Program-made: the position numbers and the translations under genes
In this document: one piece after another, positions 50 to 7,873 of the stretch
Position numbering within the stretch: the stretch's first letter is position 1
Layout: every line of letters starts with the position of its first letter
Notes under the pieces: generated by a model
Database searches by the model: none
What the model was told of the DNA's origin: nothing
The model's input: the letters and a program-made list of their open reading frames with translations, nothing else
Virus genome (UHGV): UHGV-0128496
Source of the DNA: a virus
Strand: one strand, 5' to 3'
DNA length: 16,551 bases

Positions 50-1363
50 TTAACTGACTGATTTTAATAGTCCTATGCTGTTTGTTTGTGGCCTATGGGG
101 CATCAATGGGGCAAAGTCGCCCAGCTTCTGATTCAGCATTGCGATCTGCTCTGCGTTATTGTCTGCCATCCATGCGCCGTACACATTGAAAACCATCTGC
201 GCGCTAGCGTGCCCCATCTGACTGGCTATAAAGCTTGGATTGGCGCCGGCGGCGAGTGACCAGCACGCGTAAGTGTGGCGCGACTGGTAAGCTTTTCGAT
301 GCCTGATCCCCGCCTTTTTTAGCCCTGCGTCCCATGAGTCACCAAACGAATCCACCTTGTAGATAATCCCCACATCCTTACTTCGACGGACTATCTTAGG
401 GTTAAAGACAAATGTACACCGGTGCTTCGCCGTTCTACCATACTCACGCAATTGCACGTTGATGTGATGCTGTTGCCCGAGTCTGGTCATTTCCATCTGA
501 TTCCTTAAAACATCGATGGCTGGCTGAATGAGGTGTATCACTCTATCCGTACTGGCGTCAGTTTTCGGTAGTGTGAACTCGCCCAGCTTTGTATAATTGC
601 GGCGAATTGTTATTGTACCTGCCTCAAGGTCGATATCTTCCCATGCCAGGGAAACCAGCTCCCCGTGACGAACACCTGTGTACACCGCCAGTGACCACAT
701 GTTTTTCGTCTGCTGATGCCGGCATGCATCTATCAGACGGATGAACTCATCACGACTGAGCGGGTCTGGCTCTACCCTGGCTCTTTTTAATGGCTTTATT
801 CCATCAAAGGGATTTGCCTTTATGTACCCATTATCGGCGGCGAACTGGAACATTCCGGCGATAGTCGTCATGTAGTAATTGACGGTGACCGCGCTCCGGC
901 CCTTAACGGGGATCCTGCCCTTTACAGCGCACTGATAACCCATCAAAAGCTCTTTCCTGATATACAGCAACTCTTCTTTCTCAATCGCTGTCACCAGTCG
1001 GCTAGACCCGATCAGCGGTACAACAACAGCAACGACCGACTCGTACCGTTTGTGCGCGTTCGAGCTGATTTCCATCTTTTTCAGATCCAGCCACTTCTCT
1101 TCGAGTTCTTTCACTGTGATTTCTTTCTTTCCCAACCCAAAAATTTTAAGGTTAGGTGAATCTGGAAACCGTTCAGCATAATCAAAGCTTCCCGTGCGGA
1201 TGGCAAAGCATACCGACACCCGCAGTTCCCCGGCTATCTTTCTGTTCTTAGCGGTGTCAGGGACACCGAGGCTTTCCCTGACACGCTTACCTTTAAAATT
1301 AAACCAGATGCGTAAAGTGCCACCGTGGTTTTCGACGCCTGTTGGATATGTGACTTTATCCAT
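50..1363 (-). CDS. int: Phage tyrosine integrase (lambda-Int-like site-specific recombinase)
   Basis: 437-aa ORF with N-terminal arm-type DNA-binding region and C-terminal catalytic-core signature (R in TGVRHGEL, H-x-x-R in HRKAYQSRHTYACW, GHASAQMVFNVYGAW with tyrosine). GGAGG RBS 5 nt upstream of the ATG at 1363. Terminal position and adjacency to xis are typical of a prophage end. Confidence 0.9.
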   Translation of the reverse strand: MDKVTYPTGVENHGGTLRIWFNFKGKRVRESLGVPDTAKNRKIAGELRVSVCFAIRTGSFDYAERFPDSPNLKIFGLGKKEITVKELEEKWLDLKKMEISSNAHKRYESVVAVVVPLIGSSRLVTAIEKEELLYIRKELLMGYQCAVKGRIPVKGRSAVTVNYYMTTIAGMFQFAADNGYIKANPFDGIKPLKRARVEPDPLSRDEFIRLIDACRHQQTKNMWSLAVYTGVRHGELVSLAWEDIDLEAGTITIRRNYTKLGEFTLPKTDASTDRVIHLIQPAIDVLRNQMEMTRLGQQHHINVQLREYGRTAKHRCTFVFNPKIVRRSKDVGIIYKVDSFGDSWDAGLKKAGIRHRKAYQSRHTYACWSLAAGANPSFIASQMGHASAQMVFNVYGAWMADNNAEQIAMLNQKLGDFAPLMPHRPQTNSIGLLKSVS

Positions 1364-5262: not shown

Positions 5263-6180
5263 TTAGGCTGCGGGTTTTTGTGGCTGTTCTTCTTTGTACG
5301 AAAGAAGATCACACATCAGGTTTACTACTTTGCTGAATTGGATTAGATCCGTCCCGGCCTGATGGCGCCATTGAAATGCTTTATCATCTTCATCGTTGAA
5401 TGTTTGGGCTTGGGTATTGATGCGCGAAAAATGGAAATTTTCGGTGAGGATGAACGATACACCGCATCCTGCTAGCTCCATTTTATCAGCGGTAAAGCCG
5501 CTATTAAGGCTATCAACTAGCTCGCTTTGAATTGAGTCGTGTTCAGCTGAGTAGCGAATAACTTCATTTTGATCGGCAAGGCGGGACAGCTGGATATAAT
5601 TGCCGACGGTAAACCCTTCAAAAGCATTGGCCACGCCATTGATATAGTTTTTCAACCGCGTAGTTAAACCGTTCTTAATATCGCTAATGTTGATTGTTTC
5701 TGTTTTAACGGAACCGACAACTTTCACCAGCATAGCCACAGCCATACCGGCAATATTTTTATTGGTCGTATTGACCACTAATAGCTTTTCGTTGGTGCTG
5801 TACAACGCAAGGATCAGCGTTGATTTAACAAATGCCCGTTTACACAGGTCAACGCGGACGCTGTCGATAATTGCTAATCGTTCGATACGTTTGATTTTAC
5901 TCCCGGACATATCTTCGATTCTTTGGATCCGTGCTGCGGCTTCCTTCAAAACAACATGCTGGGGAATGATTTTCTGATCATGGCGGATCACGATGGCATA
6001 CCCACCTGATATTGGGGTGACCAATTCGCCAGTGATCGGGTTTGGCACAAAAGAGGCGCGTGAAAACTCAGTTTCACCAATCTCGGAGTAGGGGAGTTCA
6101 AGCAGATGCCCCTCGATAGCTTCAATGCTAGGTAGTGTGGCGCGGTACACGATTGCGTTACGGAACTTAGGTAATTTCAT
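5263..6180 (-). CDS. rdgC: RdgC-like recombination-associated protein
   Basis: 305-aa ORF whose length and sequence pattern (N-terminal FRNAIVYR, central hydrophobic core, C-terminal acidic tail) match my memory of E. coli RdgC (about 303 aa). AGAGGAAAG RBS 5 nt upstream of the ATG at 6180. Confidence 0.65.
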   Translation of the reverse strand: MKLPKFRNAIVYRATLPSIEAIEGHLLELPYSEIGETEFSRASFVPNPITGELVTPISGGYAIVIRHDQKIIPQHVVLKEAAARIQRIEDMSGSKIKRIERLAIIDSVRVDLCKRAFVKSTLILALYSTNEKLLVVNTTNKNIAGMAVAMLVKVVGSVKTETINISDIKNGLTTRLKNYINGVANAFEGFTVGNYIQLSRLADQNEVIRYSAEHDSIQSELVDSLNSGFTADKMELAGCGVSFILTENFHFSRINTQAQTFNDEDDKAFQWRHQAGTDLIQFSKVVNLMCDLLSYKEEQPQKPAA

Positions 6181-6513
6181 TTAACTTTCCTCTGCACAAG
6201 GTTTTAGTCCATACACGAAGTTAAGGCGGCTGCCACCGCCGAACTTTCTCCATACACAACAGAGAAGGGCACCTGCATTAGTCGGCGGCTTGAGAGACCG
6301 CTTTCTTTTTGCCCGGGTGGATTGGGTTATGAGCCCGTCGCCCGGTGATGCCCTTTTCTGTTGTGCCCTGAAAAAGGCTGGCGGTTACCGGAAATACACG
6401 GGAAAACACCGGGCCGCCAGAACAGGGAGTTACTTGTTATTGCTTTAGCCTGCTTTTAACCACATCAGGCGCGGTGGTATCTTGGTGTTCTCACACAACC
6501 AAGAGGGATGTTT

Positions 6514-6711
6514 ATGGGCGCTTTTGATAACCAGGAAATTACGTTACCCGCATGCCCTAAGTGCGGCACTAAGACGAAGAAGAAAATCGCTTGGCTCAAG
6601 TCGAACAAAAGTTTCACTTGTCGATGTGGAGCTACTATCAATGTCAACAGCAGCCAGCTTACTTCCGAAATCAGGAAGGTTGAGGACAAGCTGAAGAAGC
6701 TCTTTAAATAG
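6514..6711 (+). CDS. Small Cys4 zinc-ribbon protein (about 65 aa), lysine-rich
   Basis: CPKCG-x15-CRCG zinc-ribbon signature. AGAGGGA RBS about 6 nt before the ATG at 6514; an intrinsic terminator follows the stop. It lies antisense to the 3' half of the minus-strand ORF 6544..6910. Confidence 0.45.
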   Translation: MGAFDNQEITLPACPKCGTKTKKKIAWLKSNKSFTCRCGATINVNSSQLTSEIRKVEDKLKKLFK

Positions 6712-6910
6712 TTTTTTATCGACTGATATTATTTCGTTATCAGAGGTTGGTTTTTCAGCCTCTGATTTTTTAGTCAGGATCATTTTTTCTACACATGTGA
6801 CTACGCATTCCGAACAGATGGCAGGTTCGTCCTTACCACCTTTTGCGACGATCTTTATCGCTCCCAGTTCGGTTGCTCCGCAAAATGAGCATGTGAATAA
6901 ATGATTCATG
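6544..6910 (-). CDS. ClpX-type C4 zinc-finger domain protein (N-position early gene)
   Basis: N-terminus MNHLFTCSFCGATELGAIKIVAKGGKDEPAICSECVVTCVEKMI aligns by eye with the ClpX N-terminal zinc-binding domain (CSFCG ... IC-x-EC-V-x-x-C). ATG at 6910 with GGTAGAGG RBS. It is the first ORF downstream of the PL-like promoter. The C-terminal about 55 codons are antisense to the plus-strand zinc-ribbon ORF. Confidence 0.45.
6739..6772 (+). terminator. Rho-independent terminator after the zinc-ribbon ORF
   Basis: Stem atcagagg (6739-6746) / cctctgat (6759-6766) with a 12-nt loop, followed by TTTTT(T). It is not a terminator in the minus orientation because no U-tract follows there. Confidence 0.5.
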
Positions 6911-7018
6911 TAAACCTCTACCCCCAACCTAAGTTTTCTGTCAGCGAATCATCCGGTTATTCATATGCCACCGGCGGCTACTTCGTGGGCGTCCTGCCTG
7001 TTCGCTTTCGATGCAATG

Positions 7019-7048
7019 ACTATAGCTACTTTAAGTAGATAATTGCAA
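7019..7048 (-). promoter_or_regulatory. PL-like leftward early promoter with embedded operator
   Basis: On the minus strand: -35 TTGCAA (7043-7048), 18-bp spacer, -10 TATAGT (complement of 7019-7024). The spacer contains the inverted repeat CTACT-TTA-AGTAG (7026-7038), the same motif found in the cI-cro intergenic region. Degenerate AGTAG half-sites lie at 7057-7061 and 7076-7080. Confidence 0.4.
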
Positions 7049-7110
7049 CAACAAAAAGTAGAAAATGAAATTTTTAGTAGTGTAGTGTTATGAGGTGAGG
7101 AATTGGAGGC

Positions 7111-7140
7111 GTAAAAAAAACCGGCTTTCGCCGGTTTCTT
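7111..7140 (-). terminator. Rho-independent terminator ending the cI transcript
   Basis: Stem CCGGC (7121-7125) / GCCGG (7130-7134) with TTTC loop, flanked by A8 on the plus strand. On the minus strand this reads hairpin plus U8, 14 nt past the cI stop. It is much weaker in the plus orientation (TTTCTT). Confidence 0.6.
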
Positions 7141-7153
7141 GATGAATTAATTA

Positions 7154-7873
7154 TTAGCCAAACTCTATCATTTTTAGAGGTAAGCATCTGATTAGCTTGC
7201 CGAATATGTATAGTTCATTCATTTCATGCTCCTCTATGAAGAAGGGCGGGTAATGTTCATTGTCTGAAAGAACTGCCAGTCGGCGCCCTTTTACCTTCTG
7301 CAAACGTTTAACGAACGTACTGTCTTCAAAATTGAACACATAAACGCCGTCGCCGCTGAATTGTTCAACCTTGCTGTCTATGAAAAGCAGGTCCTTTGGG
7401 CAAAGCGTGGGCATCATGCTATCGCCATCAACATTTATCATGACGATGCCATCAAGGCTTCTACGACCAAACAACTCGAAGATCCTCTCTTCTGGAATCT
7501 CTATTGAGCTCACTATTGTAGGGAATGGTTGGTTTATATATCCGGAACCGGCTGAAGCATGAACATCCAATTGCTCTATTCTGACCGTGCCTTTGGCTGG
7601 CGCGTCGCCACCATTAACAGGCACACCATAATCAAGATAAGCCGGTGAGACGGCAAGTCTTTCTGCAATTCGAATCATCTTCTCATCTCTCGGCTTTGCA
7701 GTACCAAGAGTGTAGCGCCGCGCCATCTCATACGAGACACCACTGAACTCTGACAATTCTTTAACTCCAATAGATTGCTCTTGGAGAGACCTGTTTAGCC
7801 TTTCGGCAAAGTCTTTGTATTTAGCATTTTCCACCATAAGTAGAAGATTAAGCGCACAAGGCATAGTTGTCAT
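7154..7873 (-). CDS. cI: CI-like prophage repressor (N-terminal HTH, C-terminal S24 LexA-type peptidase)
   Basis: HTH segment VKELSEFSGVSYEMARRY; S24 self-cleavage signature VDGDSMMPT (Ser) and FVKRL (Lys). Coordinates are the maximal ORF. The in-frame ATG at 7837 (MVENAKYKDF...) is the more likely start: a PRM-like promoter (-35 ATGACA, complement of 7868-7873; 17-bp spacer; -10 TAATCT, complement of 7845-7850) would place the transcript start at that ATG, giving a leaderless mRNA as for lambda cI. Confidence 0.85.
   Translation of the reverse strand: MTTMPCALNLLLMVENAKYKDFAERLNRSLQEQSIGVKELSEFSGVSYEMARRYTLGTAKPRDEKMIRIAERLAVSPAYLDYGVPVNGGDAPAKGTVRIEQLDVHASAGSGYINQPFPTIVSSIEIPEERIFELFGRRSLDGIVMINVDGDSMMPTLCPKDLLFIDSKVEQFSGDGVYVFNFEDSTFVKRLQKVKGRRLAVLSDNEHYPPFFIEEHEMNELYIFGKLIRCLPLKMIEFG

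Follow-up and report, generated by a model that had tools for sequence, protein, structure and literature searches.

Positions 6249–6366 of the UHGV virus genome UHGV-0128496 very probably specify, on the minus strand, a conserved structured RNA that folds into a three-way junction and exposes a tip resembling part of the anticodon arm of initiator transfer RNA (tRNA). The stretch of DNA analysed (16,551 nucleotides (nt); in the following, the window) is a lambdoid prophage, near-identical to prophages in Escherichia coli FAM21845 and E. coli Nissle 1917, and the element is located in the gap at 6181–6513 next to the gene rdgC. The early-left transcript, which originates from the pL promoter, corresponds to the minus strand; since the gap forms part of this leftward transcript, it is to be read on the minus strand, where it comprises, in 5' to 3' order, a small RNA (sRNA)-like unit ending in an intrinsic terminator (6370–6480), the three-way-junction RNA, a small hairpin (6219–6246), and the ribosome-binding site of rdgC. 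The gap is best explained as an untranslated modular leader in the delayed-early section of the pL operon, containing two functional units.

A sequence-only reading of this DNA had suspected a non-coding structured RNA in the gap, and had named folding of both strands and covariation analysis in homologous prophages as the test; both structure and covariation across homologous prophages were found. Its general description of the region was confirmed as well. Between rdgC (5263–6180, minus strand) and a plus-strand open reading frame (ORF) at 6508/6514, there is no ORF of 60 or more amino acids. The GC content is 0.55–0.57 at 6200–6424, as compared to 0.41–0.47 in the flanks, and the region is dense in structure when compared to dinucleotide shuffles (z = –3.4 on the minus strand and –4.1 on the plus strand; none of 100 shuffles was as good). 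However, the dominant feature of the gap, an inverted repeat of 37 nt with 76% complementarity (6235–6271/6349–6385), the core of which is the 19-bp stem 6255–6273/6347–6365, had been overlooked.

Structure, covariation and strand of the element

The element and its parts are located as follows.

6249–6366, minus strand: conserved three-way-junction, tRNA-like RNA of 118 nt including the GGAGAA 3' flank, identified by covariance model R1 and by covariation
6347–6365, minus strand: 5' arm of helix P1, CACAACAGAAAAGGGCAUC, which begins right after the terminator U-run
6255–6273, minus strand: 3' arm of helix P1, GGUGCCCUUCUCUGUUGUG, which pairs with 6347–6365
6313–6345, minus strand: P2 arm, with the stem CCGGG/CCCGG (6341–6345 with 6313–6317) around the invariant tip
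6318–6339, minus strand: invariant tip CGACGGGCUCAUAACCCAAUCC (consensus GACGGGCUCAUAAYCCAAUCCA), whose 7-nt loop CUCAUAA is closed by three G-C pairs (hairpin 6324–6336)
6274–6312, minus strand: variable P3 arm, which has GCGG-UCUCUCAAG-CCGC (6285–6301) as its core hairpin in the window

When this structure was applied to 31 distinct homologues, 95.0% of the cells were paired, as compared to 40–54% with the partners slid by 1–3 columns, and eleven pairs changed on both sides. In the 19-pair helix P1, two-sided changes affect eight pairs, with 93.4% of the cells being paired. The P2 stem occurs among the homologues as CCGGG/CCCGG, CCGGA/UCCGG, CCAGG/CCUGG, CCUGAUG/CAUCAGG, and GACGGAUG/CAUCCGU. 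RNAalifold, run on the 31 distinct sequences, recovered P1, P2, the tip, and a 3-bp foot of P3; twelve of its 27 pairs are kept after two-sided change, and one pair of the P3 foot covaries from G-C to A-U in nine sequences. In a shuffle test (n = 500), no shuffle matched the observed alignment on four of five measures, and two did so on the fifth. Single-sequence folds of 18 diverse variants led to the same junction, composed of a long P1, a 5–7-bp P2 with an irregular tip, and a variable P3. The covariance model R1 matches the window at 6256–6372 on the minus strand (97.6 bits, E = 7e-23), which is the sole copy in the window. It did not find a match in HK022 (locus L006), phi80, or the K-12 prophage CPS-53, where the element is missing upstream of yfdP.

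The pairs also carry information on the strand. There are 54 G·U cells on the minus strand versus 11 that would be G·U on the plus strand only, and a U·G wobble beside the junction, which on the plus strand would give an A·C mismatch, is retained in 29 of the 31 distinct sequences. A stronger argument than these wobble pairs is that the polarity of the element relative to transcription is identical in two unrelated operon contexts, namely, the early-left operon and the late operon described below.

The element family was found in none of the databases and papers searched. With Rfam 15, the whole window gave no match at the gathering score, a scan of 6000–7200 with E values up to 10 gave nothing inside 6181–6513, and a search with 6200–6520 retrieved only a chance match to MIR918 (E = 1.1), with no match to the tRNA model. 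No Rfam family matched the conserved element in Flotzy, FAM21845, or one late-operon copy, and a full-text literature search with core sequence strings did not retrieve a paper. Several known RNAs and motifs were considered and rejected. The prophage sRNAs AgvB/AsxR, the Pas sRNAs, and svsR/C0293 occupy other positions on the phage map and are unrelated, as is the M3 RNA of phi80, the classic phage RNA processed by RNase P, which is an oop homologue. A hammerhead ribozyme, considered on account of the CUGAUGA sequence of Klebsiella copies, was discarded since the motif is missing in the E. coli copies and no Rfam ribozyme model matched. A boxA site, considered on account of UGCUCUU in the 3' arm of P1, is not conserved (GCCCUU in the window) and would be buried in the stem.

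Distribution and a late-operon form of the element

The exact 22-mer GGATTGGGTTATGAGCCCGTCG is present in at least 120 IMG/VR contigs, which represent 83 distinct neighbourhoods. The invariant motif GACGGGCTCATAAYCCAATCCA was found in 23 genomes, all but one of which belong to the Enterobacterales; the exception, an assembly labelled Chryseobacterium, is probably a contaminant. The 55-bp core at 6311–6365 shows 90–93% identity to sequences of SfV, SfII, SfIV, mEp460, ST64B, and Stx2 phages. A close variant, comprising the mEp460-type element and its terminator, is carried by 2492 of 5426 complete E. coli genomes, in up to five places each; PGAP annotates the mEp460-type element either not at all or as a hypothetical protein.

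Besides the early-left operon, the core occurs in late operons, the carriers being the Klebsiella phages Chronis and GZ7, one Raoultella genome, and 98 IMG/VR contigs. Here, it is located between Q and the lysis genes, directly 3' of and on the same strand as tRNA genes, which include tRNA-Asn(GUU) and tRNA-Arg(UCU). In Pantoea phage PA-1, the core follows a terminator in the lysis-gene region. The late form has a length of about 70 nt, a closing stem of 6–7 bp, (U)GGCCUG/CAGGCC, and no D arm. The sequence RCCA follows right after the closing stem in 95 of the 98 late-operon copies, and a GAUAAU spacer separates the core from the CCA of the preceding tRNA in 77 of them.

Likeness to initiator tRNA and to tRNA mimics

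Within the tip, the 14-mer CGGGCUCAUAACCC reproduces without mismatch a section of the anticodon arm of E. coli tRNA-fMet (sequence used for comparison: PMC8887418). The loop CUCAUAA, closed by GGG/CCC, has the properties of a 7-nt anticodon loop, including U33, a purine at position 37, and the closing stem; in all forms of the element, the 7-nt loop contains U33, CAU at positions 34–36, and A37 and is supported by three G-C pairs as in tRNA-fMet. The late form shares further features with tRNAs, in that its terminal stem of 6–7 bp precedes RCCA, its length is in the same range, and it stands in line with tRNA-Asn, tRNA-Arg, and one further tRNA, set off by the regular GAUAAU spacer. Because the late-operon core follows tRNA genes and ends in RCCA, the family looks tRNA-derived, and judging from these sequences, a tRNA-related origin appears plausible and somewhat more probable than not. 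In contrast to tRNAs, the element forms a three-way rather than a four-way junction; it has neither a D arm nor a T-loop motif, it does not form a cloverleaf with D, anticodon, and T arms, and its anticodon-like arm is extended and irregular.

Structured RNAs that reproduce part of a tRNA, as the element appears to do, include the YrlA Y RNAs, viral tRNA-like structures, and the thrS operator. Like YrlA, the element has a tRNA-like module that sits on a long stem made up of the two ends of the RNA. However, YrlA, which binds Rsr, imitates the acceptor, T, and D arms, whereas the likeness of the element is to the anticodon arm, and genes for rsr or rtcB are absent from its vicinity. The YrlA model of Rfam did not match the element, and a weak match of 20.7 bits in locus L128 lies on true tRNAs. 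A search of the literature on VapC, decoys, and tRNA mimics in phages yielded nothing relevant.

Proposed role and alternative explanations

The sequences establish the fold, its strand and conservation, the two operon contexts, and the identity to the tRNA-fMet anticodon arm. Our working interpretation beyond this, to which we give slightly less than even credence, is that the element is a stable tRNA-like RNA that would be excised from read-through transcripts of lytic development and act via its anticodon-like loop. Judging from its position, it would be made only when the polymerase reads through the preceding terminator, i.e., during lytic development from pL. Excision might occur at the 19-bp closing duplex, which extends to 37 nt at 76% complementarity and is a candidate substrate for an RNase III-type enzyme; the late-operon form would instead be released by tRNA-processing enzymes. 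The excised element may then last as a stable small RNA and might engage a conserved host factor that recognises the anticodon arm of tRNA(CAU), possibly serving as its decoy or modulator. Candidate factors are an anticodon nuclease such as VapC, MetRS, TilS, or the P site of the 30S subunit together with IF3. Excision is proposed because the element is always located just past a terminator or a tRNA array in antiterminated operons, because it terminates in a long duplex in one form and in a tRNA-like stem with CCA in the other, and because the tip is identical in every copy across genera, albeit among copies that were retrieved by exact match to the tip. A more specific proposal, that the element is a dedicated mimic of the initiator-tRNA anticodon arm, set free from antiterminated lytic transcripts, which lambdoid and related temperate phages of the Enterobacterales would use as a decoy for host nucleases that target tRNA-fMet, such as VapC-type toxins, or to modulate translation initiation (via the 30S P site, IF3, or MetRS), is in our view unlikely.

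Several observations weigh against a released tRNA-like RNA. As the search for homologues demanded an exact match to the tip motif, the invariance of the tip is at least partly given by construction and is not independent evidence of conservation; moreover, the likeness to tRNA-fMet was spotted post hoc. The anticodon-like stem consists of 3 bp only, and position 28:42 is C·A, not C-G. The window form does not have CCA, and its closing stem comprises 19 bp instead of the 7 bp of an acceptor stem; therefore, it cannot work as a tRNA. ARAGORN, including its relaxed and mitochondrial modes, detected no meaningful tRNA in the window or the elements, and the tRNA model of Rfam recognises neither form of the element, matching in L128 the two real tRNAs only. 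As to the strand, the mismatches of the L040 type and of L071 and L079 would be wobbles on the plus strand only. These sequences, which probably arose by recombination between variant types (as L073 clearly did), slightly weaken the assignment to the minus strand. Finally, a purely cis-acting role fits the position equally well.

Such a cis-only role is the main rival explanation and is possible, though we consider it doubtful. The element would then be a structured spacer that separates the first protein gene from the non-coding cassettes, and no functional RNA would be released. It could act as an RNase III site at which the sRNA is detached from the mRNA and which determines the 5' end and the stability of the latter, or it could shield an untranslated stretch of about 200 nt against Rho. 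Consistent with this, the element is always the last non-coding unit ahead of the coding genes; a small hairpin comes next, and then the ribosome-binding site that serves genes of the yfdP or rdgC type. Moreover, its conserved GGAGAA 3' flank can pair with the terminator U-run only in read-through transcripts. The long closing duplex, furthermore, resembles phage RNase III sites, which are known from the N leader and sib of lambda and from the early region of T7. As in the RNase III stems of rRNA operons, the lambda N leader and sib, and T7 early RNA, an imperfect duplex of about 19 bp flanks a functional RNA within a polycistronic transcript; unlike a simple hairpin, however, the stem of the element closes a multi-branch loop that bears a conserved tip. 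What a cis-only role leaves unexplained is the unpaired or weakly paired 22-nt tip, which is identical from Escherichia to Pantoea and Erwinia (in copies retrieved by exact tip match), as well as the RCCA-ending form inside tRNA arrays. The genes downstream of the element are, in addition, wholly different between the contexts (rdgC, yfdP, or lysis genes).

Processive antitermination of the kind mediated by the put RNA of HK022, in which the element would modify the polymerase transcribing it, let this polymerase pass later terminators of the early-left operon, and thereby replace the missing N protein, is improbable. An N homologue was not found in the prophage, and the N position is occupied by an ORF resembling a ClpX zinc finger; relatives such as LLS have been proposed to use put-type RNA (PMC12315714). 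What the element has in common with the put RNA of HK022 is a conserved RNA structure and a place in the early transcript, here the pL transcript, of a lambdoid phage without N. However, put consists of two stem-loops (~70 nt) upstream of terminators, whereas the element, with 93–120 nt, is located directly downstream of a terminator, i.e., 3' and not 5' of the first one. Its three-way junction contrasts with the V shape formed by the two hairpins of put (PMC9378689), its sequence differs from and has no similarity to that of HK022 putL, and, as mentioned above, model R1 finds nothing in HK022. The element also occurs in late operons, which possess their own antiterminator Q, and the promoter-proximal pL leader at ~6935–7005 is a better candidate for a put-like function.

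Equally improbable is a role at the DNA level, whereby the element would be a hairpin-forming or recombination site for the exchange of sRNA cassettes, with CACAAC/GUUGUG as crossover points and the RNA fold being incidental. In FAM21845 and Flotzy, an additional cassette of ~250 bp, flanked by GTTGTG, is inserted exactly at the GTTGTG end of P1; recombinant elements such as L073 do exist, CACAAC remnants occur at module joints, and the 9-bp repeat of the window could be a scar of such recombination. However, the G·U asymmetry and the conserved U·G wobble favour a single-stranded RNA of one polarity, the orientation to transcription is fixed in both operon contexts, and neither the invariant tip nor the RCCA tail has a rationale at the DNA level. 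A recombinase that co-occurs with the element was not found, and ordinary homologous recombination between repeated conserved flanks suffices for cassette exchange. An integron attC site in particular was rejected, since the stem ends CACAAC and GTTGTGT do not fit the RYYYAAC/GTTRRRY core sites and the homologous loci inspected contain no annotated IntI-type gene.

A small protein can practically be dismissed: the plus-strand ORF, which exists but runs from 6329 to 6448 and has 39 codons rather than the 41 codons up to 6454 given by the sequence-only reading, is preceded by GGTGGA at a plausible distance 5' of its ATG at 6329 and shares its start with a 47-amino-acid ORF in the annotation of mEp460, and there is a minus-strand ORF of 43 codons at 6278–6409, but the plus frame lacks conservation (in L058, it ends after 11 codons; elsewhere, it enters unrelated terminator sequence), substitutions that look like third-position changes are compensated in the opposite arm of the stem, the 39-amino-acid ORF has no Pfam or PHROG match, and its start codon ATG is merely the complement of CAU in the invariant loop.

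Predicted terminator, sRNA-like unit and exchangeable cassettes of the leader

The leader segments on either side of the element comprise the following features.

6481–6503: hairpin at the joint with an inserted gene block (6481–~6900), containing a remnant of a CACAAC/GUUGUG stem arm
6421–6480, minus strand: sRNA-like body, consisting of the 5' hairpin ACCACCGCGCCUGAUGUGGU (6459–6478) and the single-stranded stretch AAGCAAUAACAAGUAACUCCCUGUU that leads into the terminator
6370–6420, minus strand: intrinsic-terminator-like hairpin CUGGCGG...CCGCCAG (6414–6420 with 6378–6384), followed by CCUUUUUC (6370–6377)
6219–6246, minus strand: junction hairpin GAAGUUCGGCGG-UGGCAG-CCGCCUUAACUUC of the yfdP type, left in front of the rdgC leader
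6208–6216: first copy of the 9-bp repeat TCCATACAC, with the rdgC-type junction (GUGUAUGGA...CCUUGUGCAGAGG on the minus strand)
6187–6192, minus strand: ribosome-binding site GAGGAA of rdgC, 6 nt 5' of the ATG at 6180–6178, assigned by inspection of the sequence

The predicted terminator combines a G+C-rich stem of 7 bp and an inner CCGG/CCGG helix with a subsequent U-run. Its stem becomes CUGGCUG/CAGCCAG in Flotzy and L145, where the interior is wholly different, i.e., the change is compensatory. A simple terminator scanner did not list this site because its loop exceeds 8 nt. In agreement with the suggestion of a tL1-like site in the sequence-only reading, the hairpin and U-run are on the transcribed strand and constitute the first terminator after the pL leader in phage Flotzy; it is therefore regarded as the tL1 analogue of the pL operon, resembling lambda tL1 as a G+C-rich hairpin with a U-run at the first termination site of the leftward operon. 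Attenuation of rdgC, which had also been considered, cannot be ascribed to the conserved element: it is located 3' of the terminator and also found in late operons, and therefore is not itself an attenuator of rdgC expression. There was no pointer to a protein-binding DNA site either.

The 110-nt block 6370–6480 is kept in 11 distinct sequences (13 loci), while its upstream context varies. Like Hfq-type sRNAs, it is composed of a 5' hairpin, a conserved single-stranded stretch, and a terminator, and sister cassettes elsewhere bear an RprA-like seed. In contrast to tL1 and to Hfq-type sRNAs, however, no promoter of its own was found, the search for promoter-like sites having covered both strands of 6181–6513; the block furthermore has no Rfam match, and its hairpin is branched or has a long loop.

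An 8-bp inverted repeat (6340–6347/6407–6414) does exist as had been noted, but the long-range pairing attributed to it is at chance level, roughly 0.8 such pairs being expected in 330 nt by our estimate, and is not conserved. Its arms sit in separate, better-supported local helices, namely, P2 of the element and the interior of the terminator hairpin, and the pairing is lost in homologues in which the terminator interior differs.

At the other end of the element, two alternative 3' flanks have been joined, one of the yfdP type with the GGCGG hairpin and one of the rdgC type, each starting with GUGUAUGGA, as is evident from a comparison of the window with Nissle, MEI4O1, and L140. This junction accounts for the 9-bp direct repeats, which we read as a recombination scar between two module variants; the copy at 6208–6216 is as previously described, whereas the second one is at 6249–6257 and not at 6250–6258. 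The hairpin GGCGG-CTGCCA-CCGCC at 6225–6240 is present and is lengthened by AAGTT/AACTT to 6219–6246. In other prophages, its position is taken by non-homologous hairpins with UGCAG-type loops. The block 6245–6513 shows an identity of 99% or more among about 40 E. coli genomes and joins differing left-hand modules (rdgC or yfdP) at 6220–6245. The small hairpin, the 9-bp repeats, and the 8-bp repeat, to which the sequence-only reading had drawn attention, do not make up the functional core of the region.

Flotzy does not contain 6481–~6900, and its sRNA-like unit adjoins the pL leader. At the joint with this inserted block, positions 6493–6507 are 80% identical to 6254–6268. CACAAC/GUUGUG marks the ends of cassettes and stems (6493–6507, 6254–6268, 6360–6365), with the remnant ACACAACCAAGAGGG at the joint of the inserted block, a pattern that is consistent with repeated recombination between short conserved flanks.

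Other cassettes were observed in related prophages. Many of them carry, just 5' of the element (Flotzy, L001 2647–2783, minus strand; L131–L153), a cassette that joins the seed AUUGCUGUGUGUAGUCUU to the terminator GGCGGUACCAG...CUGGUACCGCC; the seed corresponds to the 3' half of RprA (43 bits and E = 0.01 with the Rfam RprA model), and the cassette of the window differs. By its sequence, this might be a phage-encoded RprA mimic. FAM21845 possesses, in addition, a paralogue of the long-stem element (L003 3268–3518), CACAACGAUGAGAACAUUG... / ...CAAUGUUCUCUUCGUUGUG, within which there are two hairpins resembling T arms, GGUUCGAUUCC; weak matches to model R1 were obtained in L140, L145, L132, and L150. 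This paralogous element suggests a broader set of long-stem scaffolds that display parts of tRNAs.

The pL leader RNA at ~6935–7005 (minus strand) is 83–97% conserved in many temperate phages, few of which were checked for their N gene content. The hosts of these phages include Salmonella (ST64B), Shigella (SfII, SfV, SfIV), Yersinia, Pectobacterium (ZF40), Providencia, Aeromonas, and Klebsiella, and in some phages it is found in two places. With z = 0.47, the leader has an ordinary fold energy, and it is not similar to HK022 putL. It is a candidate for a put-like processive antiterminator.

Neighbouring genes

The genes and the promoter that frame the leader are listed below.

50–1363, minus strand: integrase ORF; from here to rdgC, the genes are on the minus strand
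5263–6180, minus strand: rdgC ORF (Pfam RdgC, E = 8e-33)
7048–7019, minus strand: predicted pL-like promoter, TTGCAA-18-TATAGT
7154–7873, minus strand: LexA/cI-type repressor

The inserted block 6481–~6900 harbours a pair of ORFs that overlap in antisense, 6514–6711 on the plus strand and 6544–6909 on the minus strand. The former would code for a Cys-rich protein of 65 amino acids. It is preceded by AGAGGG, a good ribosome-binding site, and by what may be an extended –10 element, TGGTATCTT, at 6473–6481, and there is a plus-strand terminator at 6739–6766. The latter, of 121 amino acids, is labelled 'ClpX C4 zinc finger protein' by PGAP, but the Pfam domain spans residues 6–41 only, and a PHROG profile of 70 positions matches residues 1–56 only. 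A hairpin, AAACCGGCGAAAGCCGGUUUUUUUU, at 7110–7172 (minus strand) extends from within the 3' end of the repressor gene to slightly past it. It matches the Rfam family STnc370 only weakly (28.5 bits, E = 0.22, under the gathering score) and is probably merely the terminator of the repressor gene.

Implications

The layout of the early-left leader now made clear, with a pL leader followed by variable sRNA cassettes with terminators, the conserved element, and the genes, explains why many phage annotations contain mosaic joints and small ORFs called in error. If real, the element would be among the most widespread unannotated structured RNAs of E. coli prophages, a close variant being present in 46% of the complete genomes; its carriers include Shiga-toxin phages, serotype-converting phages of Shigella, Salmonella ST64B, and the probiotic strain Nissle 1917. 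It provides a testable candidate for the use of a tRNA-like RNA by phages without N and by phage tRNA arrays, and ties in with research on tRNA-targeting defences and the countermeasures of phages. Should the proposed mimicry of the anticodon arm hold true, the element would represent an RNA-based counter-defence or takeover device in about half of the E. coli genomes.

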